A stretch of DNA of 64,000 nucleotides from Octopus vulgaris. Lineage: Eukaryota. The position numbers and the translations under genes are program-made. Below are positions 8,348 to 63,168 of the stretch, in pieces. Below the pieces are notes generated by a model. That model was not told where the DNA came from. It saw nothing but the letters and a program-made list of their open reading frames with translations, and ran no database searches. How positions within the stretch are numbered: the first letter of the stretch is position 1; each line of letters opens with the position of its first letter. The stretch covers positions 61,380,001-61,444,000 of the forward strand of contig OX597821.1 of the NCBI GenBank assembly GCA_951406725.2, read 5' to 3'.

Positions 8348-8680
8348 ATTGTTATATTTCGGAATGGTCATATTACCAGTTTAGCCCATAAAAACACACG
8401 CACTATATATTTGGTGTTATTTTGCTTCAGTGTTATTTATTTTTTACATTAATCTTAATCTTATTTCGGACAGAGTTCTTTCGTCACACTCCTGTGACCG
8501 CATCAGTGGTCCTTTGTTTTCTTCTTTCTTATTTGTGTCTCTCCTTACGAACCGTCAGCCATTTTGTATTTCTATTGTATGTCTTCATTTGCGCATGCGT
8601 ATATCTCTATGTGCGTCTAGTTTATTTAGTGTGTGTATGTGGGGAGATGCCTGTAATATTTGTATCTTCTGTTTATATAC
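8348..8680 (-). repeat. Inverted pseudo-LTR of PLE-1 (5' copy)
   Basis: Near-identical reverse complement of 12047-12370; ORFs 8422-8709(+) and 12037-12306(-) give the same peptide. Confidence 0.95.
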
Positions 8681-8979
8681 AACAACAACAACAACGCGAA
8701 AAACACTAACCGCAGTAACAACAACACAAACAATAACGACCGCAGCAATAACAACCGTAGCAACAAAAGCAACACGAACCCTAACAGCGGCAACAACAAC
8801 AACAATAGAAAAAATGAATGCATAGACACAAACAATAGATACAAATACAAAAACATAAACAGAGAGAGAAACAAATTGTATACAACAGCAGCAACAACAA
8901 CAACAATTATAGGGAGAACCGACACACAAACACACACACAGATAACCATAGTCACAAAGACACAAATAAAAGTGGTGTT

Positions 8980-11816
8980 ATGGGGGTCACGATGGAAAAT
9001 AAAGTTGAATGCAACAGAATCCTTGGACAGGGAGTCAGTAGACTTGAAACAGATAACAATACTCGTAGGAACAAAAATAACAACCACAACAGAGGGAAAG
9101 ACAGGGACCAACAGGCAGACATAAAACCCAACACTAATATGAACAACACATACACCAGAAACAGGAACAATGAAAATATCACTAGCGATAATCAGAATGA
9201 TAGCAATAATGGCAATGGTAGGAATAACGGTAATAACAATAATAGTGGTAGTAATAGTGGTGGTGGTAACAGTAGAAGTAGTAATGATGGTAGTAGTGAT
9301 AGTTGTGGTGGTAATAGTAATAATAGTAGTAGTGGTAATGGTGATAATAATAATAGGGAGGCTGATGATGGAAACAGTAACGATAATGAAGATAACCCTA
9401 GAAAGACCATTGACATGTATACCCACCCCTTTGACACTCAATTCTTCAACGTATGTGACAAAACTTACTGCATGAGCCGGATATATCCAACAACATTACC
9501 CTTCAACAAAAGAGTCTACATCCCAAGACATACTAATGGCCATATGGAAGCACAGTTCACTATAGCTAGGACCAAACGTAGACAGATTTTAGGATTATAC
9601 ACTAAGAGACAGAGACGGAATAAGACAGAGGCCCAACAACTCGAGATTAAACTTGCATGTGGCCTACATAAATTCATTCAGCGCACGAGGAACGGAGAGG
9701 TGGTATGCCTTCCCACTGATAAGTCCGGCAGGATGTCAATAGACAGCTTACCGAACTACATCCAGGCAATGCAACCTCATATCGCCAATACAAAAATAAC
9801 AACTGTACAGGCGCATGAGGAGAGAGAAAAGGTCCTCAACGCCCACATGATGATGTGGACAATTGTTCTGGGACCCCAGAAACGTACAGCAAATAATTTC
9901 CAAGCCTGGAACAATGATATCCCGGCACTGTATGGACTTCGCAAGGACCATAAAGTAATTACTGACCATATAGCAGGACCACCAACAAGACCAGTCTGTG
10001 GAGCGAAAATCGCTAGCAATTACATAATCTCCTACTTCCTCTCAATGATCATACGCCCTATAATCCAGATGTCACCTGATGTTTGTGACAGCACTGAAGA
10101 TCTCCTCAGCAGGATCAATGACTGTAACAACACTTGTGACCTGACAGGATGTATGGTGGGTAGCATGGATGTGGTATCCCTATATCCATCGATCGACGTA
10201 GATTTTCGGTGGAGAAGTGCGTGGAGATGATCAATGAGAGCCAGGTGGAGTTCCGTAATGTCAACACAGAAGAACTGGGCCTCCTACTTAGACTGACATG
10301 TAATAATGAATACTTAGTTAAACATAATCTTAGTAGTTTCTGCCCCAGTAGATGTTTAAGAGGTAGACCGCCCACAATTACTTCTATGGCTAGGAAGACA
10401 CATATAGAAAGATGGCACGGATGGACCAGAGCCATACGGAGCCCCGCAAATGTCCATCAGGTAAAGAAAATGATCGCACATGCACTAGGAGCTAGTATAA
10501 GAGTTACCCTAAAAGGCCACACATTTAAGTTTAATAATAAAATATATGCCCAGGAGGAGGGGGCAGCCATCGGCGTTAGTATCGCTGGTGATGTGGCCAA
10601 CCTTTTCATGGTATGGTGGGACAGAAGGCTTAAAGAACGCCTAACACAGAACTCCATACTCGTAAACATGTACTCTCGCTATGTTGATGATATCAACATA
10701 GTGGTAAAGGCACCCCCACAAGAGAGTAATGTTGATATAGTAATAGAAACTAATACTATGGAGAGCATCCAGCAAATAGCTAACTCCATCCACGAGAGTA
10801 TTAAGGTCACAATAGACTACTCCAATAAACACCCCAACCATAGACTACCAGTAATAGACACTGAACTCTGGCTAGAAATTGTGAATAATAAAACCCAAAT
10901 CCTTCATCCATACTATGCCAAACCTATGGCCTCAAAATACTTGATCCACCGGAACTCAGCCATTACGGACAATGCCAAATTCAATATTTTGATGGCAGAC
11001 CGCGTCAGAATAATGAGAAATGTGTCATGCATGTGCGAGTCCACAGAGTTAAAGAGACACATACAATATTTCATTCACCGCATGCAGTTCTCAGGTTACA
11101 GCCATAAAGAAAGGATCAGAGTATACAAAGGAGCCATGAAGAAATTTGATAATGTATTATGTAATGATAGGAATGGGATTTGCCCACTCTATAGGAACAA
11201 GTCATGGAACACTATAGAAAGGACTAAAAAGAAAATAGGGAAGGCCAACTCTTGGTATGATCGCAATAAATACCAGAGTGTCATGTTCATTGACACCACC
11301 CCTAGAGGTGAACTGGCATACCGCTTTAGAAGGACCCTAGACAAACTTAAGCTAAGAATTAAGGTTGTTGAAAAGCCAGGCAACCCTATCAAATCTATAA
11401 TTGGTAGAACCTATCCTTTTAGTAGAACCCCCTGTACGGATAAGTACTGTAATGTATGTAGATTTAGCCCACAAACAAACTGTAAAGCCAGAAATGTAGT
11501 CTATAGTATAAGATGTATAGAGGGACGATGCAGTAACAAGACAACGACATACGTAGGGGAAACGGCAAGAAGCATAGGAGAGCGGGTAAATGAGCATTGG
11601 AGACAACTCAAGGAAGGTAAAAGCTCATCGATTCTGTACCAACACGCCGAACAGGAACACGGGGGATCAATCAATAACATAGAAATTAAAATATTGTCTA
11701 CACATAGAACAGATGCAACAATTAGACAAATTACAGAAGCTACACGCATAATAGAAAATAAACCTAGCCTGAATAGAAAACTAGAATGGAGCACTGGCGC
11801 ACACCACAACATATGA
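8980..11816 (+). pseudogene. PLE-1 RT / GIY-YIG endonuclease polyprotein split by one frameshift near 10205
   Basis: RT motifs PTDKSG, GSMDVVSLYPSI, QEEGAAIGVSIAGDVANLFM and YSRYVDDI. Cys linker CTDKYCNVC. GIY-YIG motifs NVVYSIRC...YVGETARSIGERVNEH...RQITEA...LN. ORFs 8980-10230 and 10209-11816 join immediately after motif A. Confidence 0.9.
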
Positions 11817-12046
11817 CGATAGAGGATCCCGAAAACATAATAAATACACAGATAAATAAACAAATAAAAATAAATAACTATATATATATTTTTTTTTTCG
11901 ATTCGATTTATTGTTGTTATTACTAGTATTGTTGTTATACATACATACATACAAGCATATGTAATGATAATAATAAGTGGATGTAAACACATGAACAAAA
12001 TAAGAATAAACAAAAACAACAAAAACAAAATACAAATTACATGAAC

Positions 12047-12362
12047 GTATATAAACAGAAGATACAAATATTACAGGCATCCCCCCACATACACACACTA
12101 AATAAACATAGACGCACATAGAGATATACGCATGCGTAAATGAAGACATACAATAGAAATACAAAATGGCTGACGGTTCGTAAGGAGAGACACAAATAAG
12201 AAAGCAGAAAACAAAGGACCACTGATGCGGTCACAGGAGTGTGACGAAAGAACTCTGGCCGAAATAAGATTAAGATTAATGTAAAAAATAAATAACACTG
12301 AAGCAAAATAACACCAAATATATAGTGCGTGTGTTTTTATTGGCTAAACCATTCCGAAATAT

Positions 12363-12370: not shown

Positions 12371-12419
<49 letters not shown>

Positions 12420-12420
<1 letters not shown>

Positions 12421-13299
12421 GAGGGGTACCCAAAAGAAACCGAAATTTTAAAATATTATTTCATTCACTTAGCTTTACGTGTTTCCTCTTTTATTGACTT
12501 TAAATTATTCGCCATTTAAACAATGCATCGGTCAAGACGAGCTTTCAAATTTTGGAAGCAGTGATGGAACTCTTGCTAAGTGATGCCTTTTAACGCGTCC
12601 GTCGTTTTTTTTTACTAATCTCTTCCACATCTACAAATTCCGTAGCACCATCTTTCGTCACCAATGATGACATTCGAAAAAAGGTCCGTATCGACTTCCA
12701 ACAGTTCTTTCAGTTCACGATATGCATTTAATCATGACTGCTTTTGATCTTCCGTGAGCAAAAGAGGTATAAATTTTGTTGCAACTTTTTTCATTCGCAA
12801 TTCCTCGCTCAAAATTCGTCAGTCATACCAACAATTTCGTCATTTGTTCGGTGACGGTCCTCCAAGATCAGTTTAGGAATTTTCATGATGTTTTCATTCG
12901 TTCAGGGGATCAACGGTCGCCTTCAAGGAGCGTTGATCCTCAAGTGGTCAAGTGACCGTTTCTAAAGCGTGAAAAAAACCAAAAAAACAATCGTAATGTT
13001 TTGCTCATAGTAGCGTCCTTGTAAGCTGTTTGGAGCCTGACCACTGTTTCAACGCGCGTTCACCCAAGCAGAAAACTGAATTTCACGGAAACACGTTGTT
13101 CCTACATTTCAGCCATCGCTGAATCGACGAACAAGGGCACAAAGCACAGAGGCATCACGTGGCAGTATGACCCCATTGGGCAATGACTGTCAGCAGAATG
13201 ACGCCTATGTGTCGCATCAAATTGTTTCGAGCGGCTGAAGCCTGAACTACAACGGGCTTGTCCCACAGATAACTTTTCAGTTTCTTTTGGGTAACCCCT

Positions 13300-13301
<2 letters not shown>
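12420..13301 (-). mobile_element. Internally deleted mariner-type DNA transposon
   Basis: TIRs CGAGGGGT(T)ACCCAAAAGAAAC(C/T)GAAA at 12420-12445 and 13275-13301, within (TA)n. The minus strand encodes a decayed mariner N-terminus, MAEM*EQRVSVKFSFLLG*TRVETVVRLQTAYKDATMSKT. Confidence 0.85.
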
Positions 13302-13358
<57 letters not shown>

Positions 13359-15272: not shown

Positions 15273-16486
15273 TTGGACAAAATAATAATTTTGAAATATC
15301 TATAAAACTGTCAAAAGCTTGTTTATTTTATATTATTTGATTTATTATTTGTGTTGCTTAACATGTTTTACTAAATTTGATGTTTCTTTTCAGATATAAT
15401 AAGGAAAAGGTAATAAAAAATTATTAAAATGACAGATCTATCGGACTTTTAAAGAGATCAAGTTGCTGGTGCTTGTATAACAGGCGCTATCGTAACGAAA
15501 ACAGCCGAAATGTCTCGAAAGTAAGGACAGCCTTTGAGAAAGAGGGAAAAATCTCCGCGTCGAAACAAAGCTCCGGTAGAATACCAAAATTTTCAGATAT
15601 GGACCGTCGGACTCTTACGCAAATTGTTAGAAAGGATCAAAAACGTACAGCCCTCAAAATTGCTGCAGAGCTTAATGACCACCTCGAGAACTCAGTTTCC
15701 ACAAAAGCTGTTCAATGAGAGCTGCACAAATCCGGATTTCATAGAAGGGCTGCAATCAGAGAACCACTACTTTCAAAGAACAAACATTGCAAAGCATTTA
15801 GAATGGAGTAAGAACCTACAGAATTGGTCCGTAGAGCAGTGGAAGAATGTTATGTTTTCGGACGAATCATCCTTTACCTTATTTCTGACCACCAGCCAAG
15901 TATACATGTGGAGACAGCCAAAAGAAACATTTGACCCAGACTACCTTCTAACTGTTAAACATGGAGGAGGATCGGTGATGATCTAGGTGAGGGAGCTATA
16001 TCTTGGGAATCTGCTGGTTCAGTGGTTCCCCTTCATGGCAGAATTAATAGTTAAGACTATTTTAGCATTTTATCTGATCAAATTCATCCTATGGTTGTGG
16101 AACTGTTTCCGGAGGGAAACACAAACATTCAGGATGATAATGCACTACTAAAGTTGTTACTGAATGGCATGAGGAACATTCTAGTGAAGTTGAACACTTT
16201 ATATGGCCTCCACAATCTGCAGATCACAATATTATTAAACATTGATGGTGCATTTCAGAAATACAAGTAAGGGGTCGATATCTTCCACCATCATCACTAC
16301 AAGAACTGGAGACTGTTTTAGATGAAGAATGGAGAAAAATTCCTTTGGAAAAAAATTCAAACTTTGCACAATTCCATAACTCATAGAATTCAACCTGTGA
16401 TTAAGGCCAAAGGCAGTCCTATCCCATGTTAAAATAAATTTGTTTGAAATTTTAAGGTGTTTCCAGTATTTTGTCCAACGTCCGTA
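15273..16486 (+). mobile_element. Tc1-like DNA transposon fossil
   Basis: The right end GGTGTTTCCAGTATTTTGTCCAACGTCCG-TA is clear. Only TTGGACAAAATA of the matching left TIR remains (15273-15284), so the left boundary is approximate. Confidence 0.8.
15429..16432 (+). pseudogene. Tc1 DDE transposase pseudogene
   Basis: MTDLSDF*RDQ, SGRIPKFSDMDRR, WKNVMFSDESSF, TVKHGGGSVMI, QDDNA and WPPQSAD motifs, with stops and frameshifts. Confidence 0.9.
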
Positions 16487-25239: not shown

Positions 25240-25278
<39 letters not shown>

Positions 25279-25283
<5 letters not shown>

Positions 25284-26121
25284 TTGAGTTGTGGGGTATC
25301 GCACGAGTGGGATTATATAAGAAAAAAGGTTTGAAAATGCAATTTAAACGATGTTTATTTACTTAACCGGTTTCACTCTTTGGTAAAAGATTGTCAAAAG
25401 TTACATTTAAGGAAACATTGAATAATATGGGTTCAAAAAAGTTTTTTACATAATTGTCACATTGGATATTATGAATTCAAAAATGTTTTTTTATACATAA
25501 TTGTCACATTACATGTATAAATATAGTGTTGGGTAACAGAGAAGTTCAATAGTGTGATGAGAATATTTGGGAAAATTTGGCAGAAAAGGATACAACAAAT
25601 ATATTATTGGGAATTGGTTACGTTAATTATTGGTTGTCGCAAATTGTCACATTACATGTATATATATACAATCTTTGGTATATATATACAGCGTTTTGAC
25701 AGCAAAAATTAAAATGGATTTTTTGTACATCTCAGAATATTTTAAGTATGTTTTTACTGACCTGTCAGTATTAGCAGAAAGGCTGAACTGAGAGAACAGA
25801 AGAAGTAGCCAATGTGGTGTATACTTCCCCTTTATGCATGAATGATTTTGGGGTTATCATGAGGTTAGTATGCGGGTGTGAATAGATGTGTCCGTGCCTG
25901 CTGGTCAGATAGCGTCTGTTTGTCACACACATATATATACACACAAACACACACACACACAACAACACACACACACACATAGTATACAAACACACACCAC
26001 ATACAAACAACACACACACACAGAACACACACACCCACACACAACGCACCCACATATATCACATATACACACAGCACACAAATATAACATGTATCTATAT
26101 ATAACATACACAGATATATAA

Positions 26122-26181
<60 letters not shown>

Positions 26182-26677
26182 TACATACATAATATAAATA
26201 TCACACAAATACACCTAGCATATATATACACACATACAATACACACATACAGCATGTAAGTAATATACATACACAACATATGCATGCAATATACATACGC
26301 AATACATACATATAATATATATATATATAGACAATGCATATACATATATACACATATACATATAAATAGTGTTTACATACACATACATAGATGTACCACA
26401 TATACACACAACACACATACATACAATGCATACACATACACGTACGCATACATATAATATATATATACACACACACACACACATAACATACATACACACA
26501 CAATGCATACATATATATACACGCAATGCATATACATGTATTCATGCATATATAGCACACCTACAATATACATATATACAGTGCACACATACACACAAAT
26601 ATATACACTTAATTGTACACGTACATATACAATACACATACATACAATATACATATACACAATGCGCATGCAAATAA
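25279..26677 (-). repeat. 3' pseudo-LTR of PLE-2 (~1.4 kb)
   Basis: Nearly identical to 31037-32436. Confidence 0.95.
25361..25401 (-). ncRNA. Minimal hammerhead, U3-A8 variant (3' pLTR copy)
   Basis: ACTT-TTGACAA-TCTTT TACC AAAGA GT-GAAA-CCGG-TT-AAGT. Confidence 0.7.
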
Positions 26678-26979
26678 TGTACATCTTTATACACACATAA
26701 ACATGCAAATAAATATACACACACACACATACACACACACACATATATATACACACATATATATATATATATATACACACATACATACATACATACATGC
26801 ACATACATATATTTTTTCACACACATGCACACACATATATATATATAAAAAATTCACCACCCCCCACACACACAAATTACAAACCTATAGCGTACACACT
26901 CAAATATATCTCTACATGCCGCACACACACACAAACAAAGTACTAACATATACACACATACCATGCATATACACACACA

Positions 26980-27012
<33 letters not shown>

Positions 27013-27390
27013 AAAACAGATAAATATGTAAATACATACACACGTACACAATGCTCACACACACACACACACACATACACACACACCCGCACACAGTGCA
27101 CACGCACACACACATATATACACACGTGCACACACACACACACACACAACGCGTGCACACACACATATACACACACACGCACACAGTGCACACACACACA
27201 CACAACACTCACACACATACATCACCTACATATATATAATGCATACGTGTGCATGCCACGTATGTGTGCGGTCAATGCCCGCTAGTGTGTCCTATGCGTG
27301 CCGATGCGCGCATGTGCCCGCCCGCACGATATGCTGTGAGCGTGCGCGCGTCCCTGTGTGCTTGCTCTGGATGTGCTTCCAGGGGGTATG

Positions 27391-29667
27391 TTAGAGTATG
27401 TTTAGTTGTGGTCTGTATTTTTGAATAAGATTACTTTCCTTATTTATTCGTGTTTGGTCTGTGGTGTTGTCCGAGCATTGGTATAGTGGGAAGACTAAGA
27501 ACTTGGGGGACTTATTGTGTGCACAAAGGTCTAAGTGTCCACTTAGTGGTATCTGTCTTGTGGAGGGGTCCCTCAGTTGTTGTCGGTGAACTGTCATTCT
27601 GTCTCTGAGGGTAAGGCTCGTTTGCCCTATGTAGTCTTCGTGGCAACCTTCACACCTTATGACGTAGAGTAAATTTTTTGATGCGCACGTGAAGTTATTT
27701 TTTATGATGAATGTGTGTCCCGAGTGGAACTTGTACGACGATCCCTCAATGAGGTGGATGCAGGTCTTACAGTTGGGGCGACCACATTTTTTGATGGTGG
27801 GCGGTGGGTTTGTGTTGTGTAATTTTGCGTTGGTGAGGAGGTTTTTTAGGGATTTAGGTTGTCTCTTACTTTTTATTATTTTATGAGCTGCCAGTATTTT
27901 TTTCAGGCGTGGGTCTTGATTTAGTTGTGGAATGTTGTTGTATATAATAGTGTAAGCTTCTGCATTCCTTGGGTTGTGTGTTGAGAGATAAGGGAGGCTA
28001 TTGACTGTACTGTGGATGTGTTTGGGTTTTCGAAGGTCTTGAATGTTGATTGATTTGGCCCGTTCTATTCCGTTGTCTACTAGTGATGCCGGGTAATGTC
28101 TTTCGAGAAGAATTGCCCTTAGTTCCCGGAGTCTTCTATTTCGTGTTGTGTCATTTGAGACAATAGTGCAGATTCTTCTCGCTAGGTTGAAGGGGATATT
28201 TGTCTTTGTGTGTTTTGGGTGATTGGAGGTGAATAGAAGGTATTGTTTAGAGTCAGTGGGTTTGTAATGGATGTCAGTTTCAATGTTGACGCCTTTTTTA
28301 ATGATTAGGATGTCAAGAAAAGGGAGTTGGTCCTGACTATATTCCATTGTGAATTGAATGTTGTTATTTACACTGTTGATAAGGTTTTTGAAGTCTATAA
28401 GTTGGTCGAGTGTGTGGGACCATAGGATGAGGCAATCATCTAAGTAGCGTTTCCAGTTCTCCAACAGGTATTTGTGGAAAGACTGGCCGTACTTATATTT
28501 GGATTTTTCATAGATATGTGATTCCAGGTAGGCCATCACCAGGTTTGCATAGGTAGGTGCAACTTTCGTACCCATTGCAGTTCCTGAGACCTGTCTGTAA
28601 GTGTTGTTGTGGAAATACATGAAGTTGTTTTGCAGAATAAATTTGAGGCCCTCAATTATGAATTCTTTTTTAATTCTTTCCGGGATCTCATTGGGATATT
28701 TATCCAGCCAGAATTTAATGGCTTCCAGTCCAAATTCATGTGGGATTGTGGTGTAAAGATTAATAACATCAAAAGAAACGATTAAGGTGTCTTTATCGGC
28801 ATGTTTGGGGAGATGGTTTAATAGGTCCAGGTCATCTCTTACAATACTTGGAATGTGTTTCAGTATTGGCTTTAAGATGATATCTATAAAGTTGCTAAGT
28901 CTGTGTGTTTCACAACTGGGGCCTGCCACTATTGGTCTCAGTTTGAGATCAGTGGGATGTGGTATAGTGATGTAGGTTGAAGTGGACTTTTTGCAAGCTT
29001 CTGTGATAATTTGACTCTTGTGTATTTTTGGAAGCCCATAGAGTGTGCTGGTTTTGCAATTAAATTTAGTAATGTAGTCGCATTCCTTTGCTGTCAAGTC
29101 ATTCCGGTGTTGGTAAATGAGTGCCTTCAGATTGGTCATTGTTTTGGATTGCTGGTAGTCGACTACTCTTTCGTAGTATGTGGTATCCTCTAAAAGGAGA
29201 GATACAGAGTTTTTATATTGCTCAGTATTCATAACAACGACCGTACTACCCTTATCAGCTTCCTTTATTGTGACGTCATGATTGTCTCGTAGCGTATGGA
29301 TGATTTCCCATTCTCTTTTACTGGTGTTGGGTTTGAGTTTAGGTTGTGGGAGTTCACCATAAGGGAAGTTGGAGATGTAATCGCAAAATTTGTCTAAGGT
29401 TTTGTTTTTGCCTTTTATGGGATTATAGTTGCTTTTGTTACAGACCATTGATTCGTCGTTATTATTAGTTTTTCTGTCAAAAAATTCCTCTGTGAGGCGT
29501 AATTTTCTGCAAAAGTGCGAGATGTCATCCTGTATTTCCCTCAGGTTAGGGTATTGCGGAGTTGGGGTGAATTTTAGTCCTCTTGAAAGGATTTTTATTT
29601 GTGGTGTCGACAGGTTTAGGTTAGAAAGATTCACTATTTTTGGTTTTTCGGGGTTGGTATCTACCAT
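27391..29667 (-). CDS. PLE-2 ORF2: reverse transcriptase + Cys linker + GIY-YIG endonuclease (758 aa)
   Basis: LSRGLKFTP, IKEADKG, YGLPKIHK, LRPIV, SFDVINLYTTIP, QVSGTAMGTKVAPTYANL, WKRYLDD, LPFLDI, YKPTD, CGRPNCKTC, LLYVIRCEGCHEDYIGQT, RINKE...QLN. No stops. Confidence 0.96.
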   Translation of the reverse strand: MVDTNPEKPKIVNLSNLNLSTPQIKILSRGLKFTPTPQYPNLREIQDDISHFCRKLRLTEEFFDRKTNNNDESMVCNKSNYNPIKGKNKTLDKFCDYISNFPYGELPQPKLKPNTSKREWEIIHTLRDNHDVTIKEADKGSTVVVMNTEQYKNSVSLLLEDTTYYERVVDYQQSKTMTNLKALIYQHRNDLTAKECDYITKFNCKTSTLYGLPKIHKSQIITEACKKSTSTYITIPHPTDLKLRPIVAGPSCETHRLSNFIDIILKPILKHIPSIVRDDLDLLNHLPKHADKDTLIVSFDVINLYTTIPHEFGLEAIKFWLDKYPNEIPERIKKEFIIEGLKFILQNNFMYFHNNTYRQVSGTAMGTKVAPTYANLVMAYLESHIYEKSKYKYGQSFHKYLLENWKRYLDDCLILWSHTLDQLIDFKNLINSVNNNIQFTMEYSQDQLPFLDILIIKKGVNIETDIHYKPTDSKQYLLFTSNHPKHTKTNIPFNLARRICTIVSNDTTRNRRLRELRAILLERHYPASLVDNGIERAKSINIQDLRKPKHIHSTVNSLPYLSTHNPRNAEAYTIIYNNIPQLNQDPRLKKILAAHKIIKSKRQPKSLKNLLTNAKLHNTNPPPTIKKCGRPNCKTCIHLIEGSSYKFHSGHTFIIKNNFTCASKNLLYVIRCEGCHEDYIGQTSLTLRDRMTVHRQQLRDPSTRQIPLSGHLDLCAHNKSPKFLVFPLYQCSDNTTDQTRINKESNLIQKYRPQLNIL

Positions 29668-31001
29668 CTGGTGTCGTGGAAACTGATGCCCTTGCCTAAA
29701 GGAATCCTGGGGGTTCTTCTATTTGCGGTATTTTGCTGTATGTGATTCTGTCCCCCGTTGACATGTCTGTTGAAGAGGTTTTGGTTGTTGTGATTCTGTC
29801 CCCCGTTGCTATGTTGTCTGTTGAGGAGGTTTTGGTTGTTCCAGGGTCTGGGTTGTTGGTGTGGCCTCCTGGAAGAGTTTTGGTTATTCCAGGGTTTGGG
29901 TTGTTTGTCCTGGGTGTAATGTTGGTTCCTTAGAGTGGGTTGGAAACTATATTCATGGTTTAGAAGTGAATTCCTATATGTTGGGGGAGAACTCTGAGTT
30001 AGGAGCGGTTTTGGTTGGAATCTACAATCATAGTTCAGAGATGGGTTTCTAAGTGATGGGTAGGATCTCCGAATCTGGAACAGTTCTTGTGTGGGTTGGG
30101 GTCTACGTTGTCTGGTAAAGTTTTGTCGTGTGATGATGGGTGTCTCGGTTCTTTTGATGGGATTGTAGTGCTGTCTGTAAGTTCTGTTGTTGTTGTTGTC
30201 GATGTTAGGGGTGGTGTGTGTTCGGTGTTTTGTGGTTGGTTTTCTTTGTTTTTGGCGAGGGGTGTGAGTTGAAGTAGATATTTTAAAATATGGGTTGCTT
30301 GAAAGGTGTTCCTTTGTGAACTCTGTTTCATAATTGGTGAACCAGCTGTTTTTTTCCATTCGTTGGAGGGATGTTATTTCTTCATCCTCGCAGTTTTTTC
30401 TCCAGAGTTTGGTGGTTTCATCAAGGAGTGCTCCTTCACAGTGTTTTGAGATTTCAATCTGCATTTCATTGTCAAGGGTCTTGGATTTTTCTTCACTGGT
30501 GTTGGCTCTGAGCCGCAAGAGTTCTACTTCCGTTTTGAATTTTTCAAAAGCTAGTTTCTCCCTGAGGTTTTTTTGGTTTTCTGGTTCATTTTGGATGGGT
30601 TTTATTTGTAGTTTTCTGGGTAGGATGATAGGGGTGGAGTTGAGCCACTTTTCATAAATGTCAGCTTTGTTGTTATTTTTTATGAAATTCCAGAAGGCAA
30701 ACTTACGCGCTTTGAGATTTTTACTCCAGGTGTTGTTAAGAGAGCTTTTAATTGAGAAGCAGTCTTTAGTTTGCTCCTGCTTTGGGAGCACTGCCGTCTC
30801 TATGGATTTCATTAGGTTTTGCAGTGTTGGGATGATGTCAGGGATTTGATTGGTTGTTTTGGACTCCATGAGTCCATTTAGGTATAAGTGCGATTGTTCG
30901 ACTTTGTTTATTATGGTTGAAAGTTTCGAGGAGATTTCTTGTAATTCTTTTAGGATATTTTGGTTCATTAAAGATTCTGCTTGTTGTGATTTGGGTGGCA
31001 T
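29661..31001 (-). CDS. PLE-2 ORF1 (446 aa): predicted coiled-coil N-half and Q/N/R/P-rich repetitive C-half
   Basis: A long open ORF starts ~35 nt after the upstream pLTR and overlaps ORF2 by 7 nt (ATGGTAG). Confidence 0.8.
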   Translation of the reverse strand: MPPKSQQAESLMNQNILKELQEISSKLSTIINKVEQSHLYLNGLMESKTTNQIPDIIPTLQNLMKSIETAVLPKQEQTKDCFSIKSSLNNTWSKNLKARKFAFWNFIKNNNKADIYEKWLNSTPIILPRKLQIKPIQNEPENQKNLREKLAFEKFKTEVELLRLRANTSEEKSKTLDNEMQIEISKHCEGALLDETTKLWRKNCEDEEITSLQRMEKNSWFTNYETEFTKEHLSSNPYFKISTSTHTPRQKQRKPTTKHRTHTTPNIDNNNNRTYRQHYNPIKRTETPIITRQNFTRQRRPQPTQELFQIRRSYPSLRNPSLNYDCRFQPKPLLTQSSPPTYRNSLLNHEYSFQPTLRNQHYTQDKQPKPWNNQNSSRRPHQQPRPWNNQNLLNRQHSNGGQNHNNQNLFNRHVNGGQNHIQQNTANRRTPRIPLGKGISFHDTRW

Positions 31002-31036
31002 TTTCGGGACTCGTGTGATGTTTATATATATATATA

Positions 31037-31883
31037 AAAAAGTTGAGTTGTGGGGTATCGCACGAGTGGGATTATATAAGAAAAAAGGTTTGAAAATGCA
31101 ATTTAAACGATGTTTATTTACTTAACCGGTTTCACTCTTTGGTAAAAGATTGTCAAAAGTTACATTTAAGGAAACATTGAATAATATGGGTTCAAAAAAA
31201 GTTTTTTACATAATTGTCACATTGGATATTATGAATTCAAAAATGTTTTTTTATACATAATTGTCACATTACATGTATAAATATAGTGTTGGGTAACAGA
31301 GAAGTTCAATAGTGTGATGAGAATATTTGGGAAAATTTGGCAGAAAAGGATACAACAAATATATTATTGGGAATTGGTTACGTTAATTATTGGTTGTCGC
31401 AAATTGTCACATTACATGTATATATATACAATCTTTGGTATATATATACAGCGTTTTGACAGCAAAAATTAAAATGGATTTTTTGTACATCTCAGAATAT
31501 TTTAAGTATGTTTTTACTGACCTGTCAGTATTAGCAGAAAGGCTGAACTGAGAGAACAGAAGAAGTAGCCAATGTGGTGTATACTTCCCCTTTATGCATG
31601 AATGATTTTGGGGTTATCAGGAGGTTAGTATGCGGGTGTGAATAGATGTGTCCGTGCCTGCTGGTCAGATAGCGTCTGTTTGTCACACACATATATATAC
31701 ACACAAACACACACACACACAACAACACACACACACACATAGTATACAAACACACACCACATACAAACAACACACACACACACAGAACACACACACCCAC
31801 ACACAACGCACCCACATATATCACATATACACACAGCACACAAATATAACATGTATCTATATATAACATACACAGATATATAA

Positions 31884-31932
<49 letters not shown>

Positions 31933-32436
31933 CACACGCACACATACATACATAATATAAATATCACACAAATACACCTAGCATATATATACACACATAC
32001 AATACACACATACAGCATGTAAGTAATATACATACACAATATATGCATGCAATATACATACGCAATACATACATATAATATATATATATATAGACAATGC
32101 ATATACATATATACACATATACATATAAATAGTGTTTACATACACATACATAGATGTACCACATATACACACAACACACATACATACAATGCATACACAT
32201 ACACGTACGCATACATATAATATATATATACACACACACACATAACATACATACACACACAATGCATACATATATATACACGCAATGCATATACATGTAT
32301 TCATGCATATATAGCACACCTACAATATACATATATACAGTGCACACATACACACAAATATATACACTTAATTGTACACGTACATATACAATACACATAC
32401 ATACAATATACATATACACAATGCGCATGCAAATAA
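31037..32436 (-). repeat. 5' pseudo-LTR of PLE-2
   Basis: Direct repeat of 25279-26677; contains a hammerhead copy at 31120-31160. Confidence 0.95.
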
Positions 32437-33148
32437 CTGTGTGTGTGTGTGTGTTGTTTGTATGTGGTGTGTGTTTGTATACTATGTGTGTGTGTGTGTG
32501 TTGTTGTTGTGTGTGTGTGTATTTGTGTGTATATATATGTGTGTGACAAACAGACGCTATCTGACCAGCAGGCACGGACACATCTATTCACACCCGCATA
32601 CTAACCTCCTGATAACCCCAAAATCATTCATGCATAAAGGGGAAGTATACACCACATTGGCTACTTCTTCTGTTCTCTCAGTTCAGCCTTTCTGCTAATA
32701 CTGACAGGTCAGTAAAAACATACTTAAAATATTCTGAGATGTACAAAAAATCCATTTTAATTTTTGCTGTCAAAACGCTGTATATATATATACCAAAGAT
32801 TGTATATATATACATGTAATGTGACAATTTGCGACAACCAATAATTAACGTAACCAATTCCCAATAATATATTTGTTGTATCCTTTTCTGCCAAATTTTC
32901 CCAAATATTCTCATCACACTATTGAACTTCTCTGTTACCCAACACTATATTTATACATGTAATGTGACAATTATGTATAAAAAAACATTTTTGAATTCAT
33001 AATATCCAATGTGACAATTATGTAAAAAACTTTTTTTGAACCCATATTATTCAATGTTTCCTTAAATGTAACTTTTGACAATCTTTTACCAAAGAGTGAA
33101 ACCGGTTAAGTAAATAAACATCGTTTAAATTGCATTTTCAAACCTTTT

Positions 33149-33152
<4 letters not shown>
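32437..33152 (+). repeat. Inverted partial pLTR of PLE-2
   Basis: Reverse complement of ~31079-31785; contains a hammerhead copy at 33071-33111. Confidence 0.95.
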
Positions 33153-41972: not shown

Positions 41973-42002
41973 CGTTTTGTCTTTGTGTTTGCATGTTTGG
42001 AT

Positions 42003-42037
<35 letters not shown>

Positions 42038-42199
42038 GTAAAATAAGAAAAATCAACGAAAATGCATATTGTAGATATAAAAAGGCTATTTATGACAGGT
42101 AGTGACAAATATATACATTTAGAGTATTACTAATCAAAAAGGTCATTATCATTGATGATTATAAGAAGTTAATAATAATAATAATAAGTTAAGATACTG

Positions 42200-42272
42200 A
42201 ATCGAACCAATTGGTTTTCGCGTTAGCTATTCATCGTTTGAACAACACCGGTTAGTAAACGCTGTCAGGTCT
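42200..42272 (-). ncRNA. Degenerate hammerhead in the PLE-3 3' region
   Basis: GAC-CTGACA-GCGTT...AACGC-GAAA-ACCAATTGGT-TC. G8 is missing and stem I is weak. Confidence 0.5.
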
Positions 42273-42412
42273 AATAGTTCCTGAGAAAAGAGATTATTTG
42301 TAAGGGAGGTAAGTAGTTCTGGATTATATGTATAAGGGAGGTAATTAGTTCAGGAATTAGAAATGTGAGTGATGTAGAAAGTATATAGGGTTTAGTGGTT
42401 TAAATTGAAGAG

Positions 42413-44544
42413 TTAGTGGTGTACTGTATTGAGTTGTGTGTTAACATTTAGTTGGGGGAGAAATTTGTTGATGAAAAATGACTCTTTATTCAACCTTTGT
42501 TGCATTGTGGTGTTCTGTGAGCATTGGTAAAAGAGAAATATTTGGAAATTGGGATTAAGATTCCTGGCACATCTTTCTATGTGTTCACTCACCTTTAACT
42601 GTCTGTATTGTGAGTGACGGATTTGCTCTTTGTGAATGGTGATTCTTTGACGGAGTGAAAGTCCTGTTTGTCCAATATAGAGTTTACCGCATCCTATGCA
42701 TGTCATGACATAGATTACATTTGCCGAGGCGCAGGTGAAATTTGATTTGATCTTAAATATTTCTCCTTGTTTGAATTGGAATTCTGAACCCTCCAGAAGG
42801 TGGGGACATGTTCCACAGTTGGAACGTCACATTTTGTCACTTTTGGCTCAGTAGTTAGTGGGTAAAGTCTAGCGCTGGTTTTAGTATTCTTTTCAGTGAC
42901 TTCGGTTGCTTTTTGCTTTTTACAATTTTATATGAGCTTAAAATTTCGTTCATTGTTTTGTCTACTGTGAGGATAGGGAGGTTTTGGGTGATGATTTTGA
43001 AGGCTTCGTTATTTCTGGGGTTATGTGTGGAGATGTACGGGAGTATTTTTAAGTCTTGTTTAGTATTACGGCTAGTTTTCATTAATTGTTGTATATCTAT
43101 CCCCTTAGCTCTTTTGATGCCTTCATTTACTAATGAGATTGGGTAGTGTCTTTTAGTTAGTGTAGATCTAAGTTCAAGGAGTCTTTGTTCACGAGTGTAT
43201 GTATCGGAAACTATGGTGCAGATTCTTTTTGCTAGGTTAATGGGAGTGTTGATTTTTATGTGTTTGGGGTGGCAGGAGTTAAATAATAGGTATTGTTTAG
43301 AGTCTGGGGGTTTATAAAATATGTCTGTTTCTATGTGGTTGTTAACTATTCTAATTAAGATGTCTAGAAAAGGTAGTTGCTTACTGTTGTGTTCCATAGT
43401 GAATTGTATATTGCTGTGTATGTTGTTGAGCATTCTTTTAAAATCAAGGAGTTGATCCATGCTATCTTGCCAAAATATGAAGCAATCATCTAAATATCTC
43501 TTCCAGTTTTCCTTTAAGTAGTAATTGAAAGAGGCGCCATATTTTTCTAGTGATGATTGGTATAACTTAAGTTCGTGGTAACCCATTACGAGGTTTGCAA
43601 TAACTGGAGCAGCTCTGGTTCCCATTGCAATTCCGCATTCCTGTCGATAGTAATTAGTATCGAACAAGAAATGATTGTTCAATAGGACGAATTTCAGTAC
43701 TTCAATTATAAAATTGTGGTTAATTCGTCCTGGGAAAAATGTGATTGCTTCTATACCATAGTCGTGTGGGATATTAATGTATAGATTCACTACATCGAAA
43801 GAGACCAGTAGAGTTCCGTCCTTTACTGTCTTCGGGAGGTGGTTCAGCATGTCTAGGTCATCCCTGATATAGCTTTTCACATACATATTTTAAAAGAGGT
43901 TTGAGTAATATGTCAAGAAAGTTACTCAAACGGTGGGTTTCGCAGGAAGGGCCAGCTATGATGGGTCTGAGTTTGAGGTCAGTAGGTGGAGGGACATTAA
44001 TGCATAGGCTTGTAGAGACTTTGCAGGCTTCACAAATGAGTAGATTTTTATGTATCTTGGGTAATCCGTAGAATAGACTGGGACTGTATTTGAAATTGGA
44101 TAGATAGTCAATTTCATGTGTTGTAAGACCCTTTCCGTGAGTTTGGAGTAGGGAGGATAATTTTTTTAGTTTCTTCTGTGGGTTGTAATATGTTAGTTTT
44201 TCATAGTAAGTATTATTTTCCAACATGGAAAGTATAAAATCTTTGTAGTACTCTGTATCCATCAATACTACCGCACTTCCTTTGTCGGCTTCTTTAATAG
44301 TGAGGTTTATGTCATTTTTTAGCTCGACAAGGTCTTTCCATTCGTTTAAATCAAGGTTGGATTTGATAAGTTGTTTTGGAATGATATTGTAAGGAAAACA
44401 AGTTATGTGATCACAGAAAACATCAAGTGCTTTATTTCTACCTTTTGTAGGAAGGTACTCACTTTTGTTTTTCACTATTGAGTGATCCTCACTGGTATAG
44501 TTGTAAAGAGCTTCTGTTAGGCGTAATTTACGGCAGAAGTCCAA
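42413..44544 (-). pseudogene. PLE-3 RT / GIY-YIG pseudogene
   Basis: Frameshifts near 43870 and 42860 split the RT and endonuclease. Confidence 0.92.
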
Positions 44545-44590
44545 AGTAGTGTCCTTAATTTCATTTGGGTTATATATATATATATATGTG

Positions 44591-45159
44591 CTTAATCATA
44601 TCGAAGGGAAATGAAAATTAATTGAAATTTTCACATCCAATGGCTTAGCGTGTAAAACATTAGTCCAAAGACTATGTATTACTCATAAAATACAGTGTAC
44701 ATTTAAACACATAAGGAATCCATTCGTGGGATTCAACACTCTAGAAAGAAAAGCTATGTTCTATAACAACAAAATTAGGGATAAAATCCCAACAAGAACG
44801 AAATGAAAAAATGAAAACTTTTACCATCTATTATCCTGGACCAATTGGTTTCTGATTTTAGTTCAGTAAATAAATTATATTCGCTAGGTGAAATCTTCGT
44901 CAACAGGTACACGTTAGATTAATTATATAAAACACGAGGCAATCAACTATGTGCCTCTTGTTTATACATCCTAATATTTTCAAAATCTACTGCGCAGACG
45001 CAGTCCCTCATCGGCAATAAAAAAAAGCCAACTTTTAAGATTCGAAAAATTATCGAAAAAGTTACAATACTTAATCACATCGAAGGGAAATGGAAATTAA
45101 TTACACGCTAGGCAACTGGAAGTGAAAATTTCTATTAATTTCCATTTCCCTCCGTTGTG
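44591..45159 (-). mobile_element. ORF-less hammerhead mini-element (~479-nt unit, partial tandem plus inverted end)
   Basis: 44591-44622 is repeated directly at 45070-45102, and 44597-44654 is repeated inverted at 45102-45159. A hammerhead lies inside. Confidence 0.7.
44835..44907 (-). ncRNA. Type I hammerhead with long stem II
   Basis: CCTG-TTGACGA-AGATTT...AAATCA-GAAA-CCAATTGG-TC-CAGG. Confidence 0.72.
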
Positions 45160-57451: not shown

Positions 57452-57974
57452 CACACATATATATATATATATATACATATATATACTTGTTATTCATTAT
57501 GAGGACATTTAAACCTCTTCTAGGGATATTTTTTATCGAAGATATTCTAGTTGATATATTTTATGTTGAAGAGATATTTCTGCAATAAATATATTATAAA
57601 TATCAAATATTGTTAATAAGTTTGAAAATAAAGAGACTCAATTTATTAGTTATTTAACATTGCCTACAATTGTTTCATTTCGCATCCAATTTAACTTATA
57701 TATACTAATATATGTTTTCTTTTTTAGTAGTCTGGGCGGAAGAACTTCAGGGCAAAATGGACATTGTAGGGTTTACATTTTGATCCGTTGAAATATTCCA
57801 AGAGTCTAAGCAGATGAAAGCTTCCAGACGGAAAATGCAAACTTATATTATTATTATTTATGTTTTGTGATATAAATTGGATGCAAAGGGAAACAATTTT
57901 AGGCAATGTTAAATAATTAATAAATTGATTCATATCACTTAAATCTCTCCATTTTCAAAGTTATTATATATATA

Positions 57975-58545: not shown

Positions 58546-58752
58546 AAGACACACACATACGTGTGTATACATATACATAAACATACATACATAATAATCA
58601 TACACGTATACACACGCACACTCATACACACACATGCAGCCACAGTCACACAGGAATGTATGTTTACATGTGCATTTGAGTGTGTGTATACCCGTTAGTT
58701 TGACTGTGTGTGTTCCTCTTCACATCACGACGTTTATATATATATATATATA

Positions 58753-59464
58753 TATGCATAAATATGAGAGAGCGACCACTATGTGGTCTACTCTAGTGCT
58801 AAAAATAGATCCACTATGGATCCCCTAGAGTAGATCACATAGTGGTCACTCTCTCATATTTATGTATAAATTTGTATTGTATCCCTGGTTTTTATGTGCT
58901 AAGCCACTTGATGTTAAATTGATGGTATTATTAAATTAATATCAAATTTTTCACCCTCATTTATAAATCTAATTATACTGCAGAAAATATTTTATGCGGT
59001 ATTCGTTTCCAGTAGTGTTATCATGCTTTTGGCGGGGGAATTTGAATCATAGCTACTAATGCAATTGATCGAACCGCACGTGTATTTTGGTGCTGCGTCG
59101 AAATATAACGAGCGATTTAATAAATTGTATTTAAGACAAACTCCTGCTGATGATTTATGGATGTTGTGTAAGTAAAATTGCATTTACTTTAATAATGAAA
59201 CAATTATTCAGGCTTAATCTATTTTTTTCGTTATTTTTCACTTGCCCCACGTTAAATGTTATGTTATTTCTACTTGGAAACAATTTATTTAGTGGCTATT
59301 CCATAGTGGATCTATTTTTAGCACTAGAGTAGACCACATAGTGGTCGCTCTCTCATATTTATGTATAAATTTGTACTGTATCCCTGGTTTTTATGTGCTA
59401 AGCCACTTGGTGTTAAATTGATGGTATTATTAAATTAATATCAAATTTTTCACCCTCATTTATA

Positions 59465-59465
<1 letters not shown>
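58753..59465 (+). mobile_element. ORF-less hammerhead mini-element (~499-nt unit, partial tandem plus inverted 5' end), in (TA)n
   Basis: 58825-58966 repeats directly at 59324-59465, and 58753-58820 is the inverted copy of 59300-59366. Confidence 0.8.
59143..59212 (+). ncRNA. Type I hammerhead with long stem II
   Basis: CCTG-CTGATGA-TTTAT...AAGTAAA ATTGCA TTTACTT...ATAAT-GAAA-CAATTA-TT-CAGG. Confidence 0.72.
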
Positions 59466-59533
<68 letters not shown>

Positions 59534-61930: not shown

Positions 61931-63168
61931 AAGGGAGGCCGTGGTCTTTTGCAACTGGCAATAACAATGAAGATTGCTACAATTGGCCTACACACCTACC
62001 TGAAAAACTCCGAGGACTGGATGTTAAAACTTGTCTCAAAACATGAAATCAAGAAAGCATCATACTCAGTCACAAAAACAGGCAAAGTGAATTCCGAATA
62101 CAAACAATTTCGGAATTAGAAATAGATATACAAGAAACAAGCACAGAAAAAGCTAGGCGCATGAAAACCCGTGCCAAAACTGCGGCCTTAGATATTCTGA
62201 ATAATAAATGGCAAGAAAAACCTCTCTATGGCAAATGCCCAAAGAGAGCGAATAATGCAGATATCGACAAAGCCCTGACCCATCAATGGCTAATGGCCTC
62301 TGGCTTAAAATCTGAAACAGAGGGGTTTATCATAGCAGCTCAAGATCAATGCCTACCAACAAGAAACTACCGGGCCAACATATTAAAGAACGGCAGTAGC
62401 CCAACATGTCGTGTATGCCTACAACAAAATGAAACCATTGACCATGTTGTCTCCAAATGCAGTCTTCTAGCGCCTACAGAGTACCTCAGTAGGCATGATA
62501 GAGCTGCACAATATATTCACTGGGTAATTTGCAAAAAACTGGATTTGCCCCATGAAAAAAACTGGTGGGAACACAATCCACCTCCTGTGCTTGAAAATGA
62601 CCACATCTCACTCCTCTGGAACTTCACCATTCAAACTGACAGGAAGATAGATGCAGATAGGCCAGACATTATATTGAAAGACTTCAGACGAAGAACATGC
62701 CTCCTCATTGATATGACTGTCCCAATCGATATAAACGTATCTGTCAAGACCTACCAAAAACTGAGCAAATATAAAGATCTTGAAATAGAAATCAGCAAAA
62801 TGTGGAAGCTGAAGACTAAAACAATACCTGTTGTCATAGGTGCCCTGGGAATGATAGCGAAAGGGACTGATTGCTACCTAACTCAGATACCAGGAAACCC
62901 CAAAATGGCATAAATTCAAAAGATAGTGCTCATGGGAACTGCTCATATCCTACGCAAAATACTCTCTATGTAATCCCAAGGTTTAAAACAAACTTTTTTT
63001 TTATTTGTTTATTTTTTTTTTTTTATGTATTAGACATTCACTAGTACAACACCAAAAGAAAGAAAAAAAAACCCAAATATATGGCACAGAACTTCCAACC
63101 TGTTGTCTCTTGAGGTCTCTGGGTGAGACTTGGAGCCAACTTGTACAGACATAAAGCAAAAGTCAAAC

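Follow-up and report, generated by a model that had tools for sequence, protein, structure and literature searches.

An old hammerhead-bearing retrozyme in the Octopus vulgaris genome, probably written by PLE machinery

Background

The closest described systems to the element analysed here are the non-LTR retrozymes of metazoans, for which circular RNA has been shown and PLEs have been proposed as the mobiliser (Cervera & de la Pena 2020, PMC7229834; also PMC7761336). The question that we address is which enzyme mobilises animal retrozymes, and whether a circle is copied; the repeats themselves, in the account available from one review, display no conserved motif that would indicate the partner (PMC7761336). 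A 2026 preprint (Li, Clavereau, Pollet, 10.64898/2026.07.22.740005) presents retrozymes as non-autonomous PLE derivatives, on the grounds of co-occurrence and pLTR homology in Xenopus, and ascribes their arrays to local amplification. PLEs leave insertions with a one-sided tail and an inverted 5' copy (Craig et al. 2021, PMC8557442), and in vitro the tail corresponds to the distance between two internal reverse-transcription starts that are used after both target strands have been cut (Frangieh et al. 2024, PMC11167929). Chlamydomonas has non-autonomous PLEs that insert head to tail (PMC8557442), and the copying of circles beyond one unit has been proposed for PLEs themselves (PMC4209133). Both the retrozyme concept and the proposed link with PLEs are already published; what is new is this set of families and the unusually clear mechanistic evidence that they offer. 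A literature search returned no account of these families or of a rule governing retrozyme insertion ends, although supplementary tables could list such families.

The window, a 64,000-nt stretch of Octopus vulgaris DNA (assembly GCA_951406725.2, contig OX597821.1, positions 61,380,001 to 61,444,000), contains one insert of a non-coding family that we call A, and the same genome holds the related families B, C and D. Like the metazoan non-LTR retrozymes, so far as the description in PMC7229834 extends, these are low-GC (32%), non-coding units that carry a type I hammerhead and have a highly paired predicted RNA; they also occur in tandem, as dimers to multimers, above all in family B. The units are longer here (490-535 nt, against ~170-400 nt for invertebrate retrozymes), and the insertion ends, inverted arms and two-site rule reported below have no counterpart in the portion of PMC7229834 available for comparison; in that work circular RNA is shown, whereas for the Octopus families it is a proposal. 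The preprint (10.64898/2026.07.22.740005) makes the same overall claim as we do and likewise describes monomers, dimers and multimers, with units of 51-972 bp. As far as its contents can be compared, it differs in that we found no pLTR homology, our evidence being the insertion signature, and in that the arrays seen here appear to arrive ready-made. By its rule, which requires two intact ribozymes in succession, the window copy does not count as an active retrozyme.

Among PLEs, the EN+ elements of the Neptune/Naiad type, as described in PMC8557442 and PMC11167929, share with our families 5' truncation, a partial tandem, an inverted 5' copy, a one-sided tail, (TA)n targets and two internal reverse-transcription starts; unlike them, our units have no ORF, a tail of 95 nt (about 90-125 nt in family B) rather than 30-40 nt, and a canonical-type ribozyme core with a long stem II. 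The 95-nt tail exceeds the published range, and this counts against a PLE model. Chlamys elements such as MRC1 likewise have no ORF, depend on PLEs, carry pLTRs and insert as multiple head-to-tail copies, but these green-algal elements, in the available description, are without canonical hammerheads and in general have 3' sequence in common with an autonomous family (PMC8557442).

Anatomy of the insert

The insert runs, 5' to 3', from a (TA)n tract through an inverted arm (unit 334-404), a 4-nt spacer, a partial unit (358-499) and a full 499-nt unit to a second (TA)n tract. Its features, in window coordinates, are as follows.

about 58735-58755, no strand: left (TA)n target tract, from the sequence
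58750..58820, minus strand: inverted 5'-truncated arm, unit 334-404, ending at the 'short' 3' site, from repeat comparison and BLAST
58821..58824, no strand: 4-nt spacer at the inversion junction
58825..58966, plus strand: 5'-truncated upstream unit (358-499), with 4 mismatches against the downstream copy
58967..59465, plus strand: full 499-nt non-coding unit, family A
59057..59130, plus strand: predicted long hairpin upstream of the ribozyme
59143..59212, plus strand: type I hammerhead motif with long stem II, 2-bp stem III and palindromic AAUU loop
59367..59370, plus strand: 'short' 3' end site, unit 401-404, TATA; putative reverse-transcription start 1
59371..59465, plus strand: 95-nt 'tail' between both 3' end sites, ending at the 'long' site (unit 499); putative start 2
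59461..59530, no strand: right (TA)n target tract

An earlier note on this DNA had described an ORF-less unit of about 499 nt preceded by a 142-bp copy of its 3' end, and both descriptions hold: no frame of the unit contains a long ORF, even when read across its own junction, and the direct repeat (58825-58966 and 59324-59465) is 97% identical with a spacing of 499. The inverted copy, which the note gave as 68 bp (58753-58820), is present but somewhat longer; a repeat search pairs 58745-58820 with 59300-59375 at 95% identity, and BLAST equates 58750-58820 with unit positions 334-404. What had been missed is that the inverted and direct arms do not share an end point: each has its own fixed site, and 95 nt separate the two. 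The likeness to PLE-2, an inverted-pLTR / pLTR / body / pLTR layout, is borne out by the PLE-2 copy in the window, which has the same two-end layout with a tail of ~41 nt. The 499-nt unit is predicted to fold more stably than its shuffles, both as a linear molecule (z -5.0) and as a circle (z -4.2).

We interpret the insert as an old, hammerhead-bearing non-LTR retrozyme, likely written by a PLE RT/GIY-YIG protein and probably from a circular monomer RNA, and give this reading a probability of nearly four in five. The copy in the window is old and decayed, with a damaged ribozyme. It is probably inactive at present and, having a single damaged ribozyme, would presumably be unable to release a monomer alone. 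It is in itself ordinary, but it leads to a young system that is informative on the mechanism of mobilisation.

A dispersed family with two fixed ends

Searching the 2.8-Gb assembly from which the window comes gave 2678 candidates for the 499-nt unit, 40 of which were scored and yielded 86 matches; exact family-A motifs had 85 and 136 genome matches and their reversed controls none. The annotation set comprises 126 loci, equivalent to 99 separate insertions, and, being drawn from best hits or motif matches, is biased towards well-kept copies. Across these 99 insertions, identity to the window unit is 77-98%, and copies are truncated to variable extents at the 5' end and stop at unit position ~404 or ~499. 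Their overall anatomy is that of a family dispersed over many contigs, with no organisation of the LTR/PBS/PPT type.

TA-rich sequence adjoins the direct 3' end in 88 of the 99 insertions. An inverted arm is present in 57; in 15 of these an end was unclassifiable and they were left out of the pairing count, and in all 42 of the remainder one arm stops at 404 and the other at 499, with 28 insertions in one arrangement and 14 in the reverse. The insertion ends bear the PLE signature without exception, and the predicted reverse-transcription starts are defined to within a few bases. These fixed two-site ends and (TA)n flanks argue for PLE-type mobilisation, and with them for the earlier proposal that the unit was inserted at (TA)n by a PLE reverse transcriptase. 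Both end sites contain TATA, so that priming by pairing with a cut (TA)n tract is plausible.

The earlier note had named many copies of fixed length with permuted or tandem junctions as a finding that would support it. The copies are numerous and tandem, with at most one junction per family-A arm, but permuted junctions did not materialise: the junctions are fixed. Family A does not go beyond two units, and two junctions in one arm were never seen in it (2 same-strand ribozyme pairs among 85 matches), and none of 24 junctions was adjacent to another. At least five upstream copies (L104, L076, L126, L057 and L376) extend beyond the predicted cut site. Two ideas about the template were dropped: a fixed transcript start at unit 146-152, because several of the 'starts' are alignment breaks at a subfamily indel, and a linear template whose start is the cleavage position (243), since some upstream copies continue beyond it. 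At one locus (L013, G000:C8:62853453-62856825), a family-A and a family-B insertion lie side by side in a single TA-rich site.

The hammerhead

The hammerhead of the window copy has a CUGAUGA core at 59147-59153 and GAAA at 59197-59200, with cleavage predicted after 59208. Taken on its own it is weak: the fold z is -1.6, the window sequence has no Rfam hammerhead match at the gathering score, and no hammerhead row appeared at E<=10 in 5 loci. Position 16.2 (59206) is A, where 15 of 16 aligned relatives have G, and this copy alone has lost the 15.2-16.2 pair; it also has U-U at 10.1-11.1, a family-A feature.

Covariation was assessed on 16 copies chosen as diverse from four families. The type I fold is paired in 91% of cells against 29-45% in slid controls, figures to be read with the caution that relatedness among the 16 copies can inflate a shuffle control; in the same copies, 10 of 22 hammerhead pairs show two-sided change, as do 6 of 7 within stem I. 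The predicted hammerhead fold is strongly supported across at least four homologous families by this covariation. The hammerhead that the earlier note placed at 59143-59212 stands as to position and family-wide fold; the window copy itself is damaged at 16.2 and has no Rfam match.

Family-A hammerheads are mostly degenerate, with U-U at 10.1-11.1 in 70 of 89, CCGA in 19 and a fully canonical sequence in 8, and the cleavage triplet is GUU in most copies; families B and C have G10.1-C11.1 and GUC. With its 2-bp stem III and palindromic AAUU loop, the motif has the metazoan form that is described as needing a dimer (PMC4209133).

Sister families and their arrays

A looser ribozyme pattern returned 1379 genome matches against 13 for the control, and 93 of the first 100 listed belong to family B, sitting in 32 arms with a mean of 2.9 ribozymes. 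The family-B unit (534 nt) is colinear with the window unit at 64% identity and has a tail of about 90-125 nt. Its arms reach about 13 units and both can be multimeric, and all 15 two-armed insertions keep the opposite-end rule; every array begins with a 5'-truncated unit and has its 3' end fixed at (TA)n. L157 (G000:C1:40931795-40938492) and many other loci are young two-armed arrays with a canonical hammerhead, and L163, taken up in the search for a partner PLE, proved to be a chance pattern match. Family C has a unit of ~505 nt, a canonical ribozyme and 65 matches, with 4 tandem steps. Family D, a further non-coding homologue, is what the 135 matches to a shorter motif used in the search for a partner PLE proved to be. 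The four homologous families are 60-75% apart, and all keep a unit of ~490-535 nt.

Every family lacks coding capacity and has the type I hammerhead, damaged in the window copy; tandem units with two or more ribozymes are present in family B, rare in family C and limited to 2 pairs in 85 in family A, while the window copy has one ribozyme. The marks of PLE mobilisation are also present: two 3' end sites with a one-sided tail, 5' truncation, an inverted 5' copy and a microsatellite target.

Units of one family-B array are 99.6-100% identical, and arrays differ from one another by up to 3.6%. At 46 array-discriminating sites, 3956 of 3967 unit calls match their own array, and 6 of 17 arrays have variants of their own that all scored units share. 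Substitution singletons are not repeated from one array to another, with the exception of one site and a strand-dependent alignment artefact. Such homogeneity, in all units and both arms, is what repeated copying of one monomer, likely a circle, would give, and arrays of up to 13 units in this sister family back the idea that copying went beyond a single round. Two of the 17 arrays (L157 and L160) have one site each that is mixed among scattered units, a pattern that a single template could yield only with subsequent conversion or a mix-up in the assembly.

Median divergence between the repeated parts of one insertion is 4.3% in family A (44 of 99 measurable), 0.6% in family B (20 of 22) and 3.2% in family C (16 of 27), for which divergence only was used and arm lengths were discarded. 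Short arrays accompany age even where, as in family C, the ribozyme is canonical; a weak ribozyme is an insufficient explanation of short arrays, since family C has only 4 tandem steps in 65 matches, and age fits better. In family A they may reflect recombination that later collapsed the arrays, a partner of lower processivity or a linear template.

The family-B unit is fully covered by contigs of X1, X4 and X11, runs that are presumed to be RNA but may hold DNA; one X11 contig bridges the unit junction, a tandem junction that exists in DNA too. Summed X1 contig depth is in the thousands on family B and 0-35 on the family-A body, these being contig figures from a run that may hold DNA. Single contigs of 523, 524 and 531 nt (X1, X10 and X11) match part of the units; their lengths, close to one unit plus a word length, could reflect closed or tandem monomers of further families.

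A model for mobilisation

We propose that tandem retrozyme copies would be transcribed, and that paired hammerheads would excise a monomer, which is then circularised. A PLE protein, probably of the Neptune type (also ending at (TA)n here), would cut both strands of a (TA)n tract, and each cut end would prime cDNA synthesis at either of two UAUA-containing sites that lie within the RNA with 95 nt between them. The cDNAs would travel round the template, each halting at a variable point, and the two arms would join head to head, giving an inverted arm, a partial unit and one or more units. On this model the window copy would represent some 0.14 of a round in one arm, against 1.28 in its partner. 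The same genome carries PLE families that are young and have intact frames of 776 and 781 aa; together with the PLE-signature ends, the defined reverse-transcription starts and a young family with a canonical ribozyme, these make a direct biochemical test possible.

A fuller view can be put forward tentatively, at well short of even odds. The families would be a long-lived superfamily of viroid-like RNA circles of ~500 nt, with no surviving parent pLTR, that hijack a PLE protein in trans; from both ends of the cut (TA)n, synthesis would start at a pair of fixed sites on one circle and go round it repeatedly, so that arrays arrive ready-made. Some families (A and D) would have kept spreading with degenerate ribozymes, and arrays would later shrink to the 'mini-PLE' form of 1.x units that the window shows. 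If true, these insertions would provide direct genomic evidence that PLE machinery reverse-transcribes by rolling circle.

The strongest competitor to copying from a circle keeps the same PLE-driven insertion but takes as its template, at least in family A, a linear read-through RNA of tandem copies, with no circle and no need of the hammerhead. We consider it unlikely, yet it has several points in its favour: family A spread with degenerate cores and never has two junctions per arm, ribozyme mutants of an anole PLE were still inserted in vitro from unprocessed RNA (PMC11167929), and the mixed sites in L157 and L160 would fit. A uniform linear multimer transcript would, moreover, give the same family-B arrays. 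Such a template cannot, however, exceed the number of units in its donor, so that array-private variants fixed in all units and both arms require a monomer step somewhere; singletons nearly never recur across family-B arrays; and covariation in stem I has been maintained across families.

Relation to autonomous PLEs

The architecture shared with PLE-2 and the partial sampling of copies and PLE families speak for another reading, in which the insert is only the 5'-truncated pLTR of an autonomous PLE, its full-length copies having escaped detection. In the search for a partner, 150 of 6136 GIY-YIG candidates were scored, and 30 PLE-2 loci came from 18681 candidates, so that a partner may have been missed. 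The earlier note had named two findings that would undo its reading, copies running upstream into an RT/GIY-YIG ORF and a single-copy unit, and neither came to light. Upstream of the 45 pieces reaching unit position 10 or less lies the unit's own tail in 35, a junction remnant in 5 and other sequence in 5, with an ORF joined upstream of position 1 in none; nor is PLE protein contiguous upstream of the unit at any of the 126 loci. The 86 matches from 40 scored candidates and the 99 insertions dispose of a single-copy unit. Window PLE proteins match 6 of the 126 loci (5 insertions), the matches being on the opposite strand, downstream or some 1.4 kb away. L087, L315 and L331, three nearby hits in the partner hunt, are separate insertions (two of the three were read).

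No sequence shared with the unit was found in the 3' regions of 90 GIY-YIG loci (15 clusters), in 30 PLE-2 loci or in the window PLEs, and a partner hunt with the loose-end motif gave 0 matches. This result counts against the PLE model, since a PLE-mobilised element would be expected to share sequence with its partner's pLTR. Most sampled PLE families likewise end at (TA)n. With head-to-tail arrays of as many as 13 ORF-less units, and a unit length kept by four families so far apart, the reading as a truncated PLE terminal repeat is already largely refuted and has very little probability left; the 499-nt unit belongs to a dispersed non-coding family and is not a truncated PLE.

It is equally improbable that the arrays are satellite DNA expanded in place by unequal crossing-over from single insertions, and the window repeat a local duplication: the mixed sites inside L157 and L160, and the drop in array length with age (B 0.6%, C 3.2%, A 4.3%), do allow that recombination may act on arrays, but the inverted arms are multimeric too and identical to the direct arm, every array has its truncated first unit and fixed (TA)n 3' end, and length is greatest in the youngest insertions, as shrinkage but not growth would predict.

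Other elements in the window and genome

The PLE-2 copy in the window (25259-33152) has a 486-aa frame upstream of a 775-aa RT/GIY-YIG frame; another copy (L277) has a 1298-aa open frame, so that the two frames may be one ORF. The PLE-2 family is very young, with many identical GIY-YIG copies, and another PLE family, also young and rich in 781-aa open frames, is a candidate trans-mobiliser. The 3' ends of autonomous PLEs (window ~25360-25400, minus strand; L241 and L243) have hammerhead-like motifs in which UUGAYAA replaces CUGANGA (a U3-A8 swap) and the stem III loops are palindromic. Two more PLEs with frameshifted RT frames lie at 8379-12349, with 241-nt inverted ends and a hammerhead-like motif, and at ~42000-44595.

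An element of about 0.9 kb with terminal inverted repeats lies between TA tracts at ~12417-13302; it resembles a Tc1/mariner-type DNA element, and the frame at 15525-15986 resembles a fragment of a Tc1-type transposase. At 57635-57931, inverted repeat arms of 59 nt, 179 nt apart, are MITE-like, and 62047-62913 is a LINE 3' fragment with a weak zf-RVT match.
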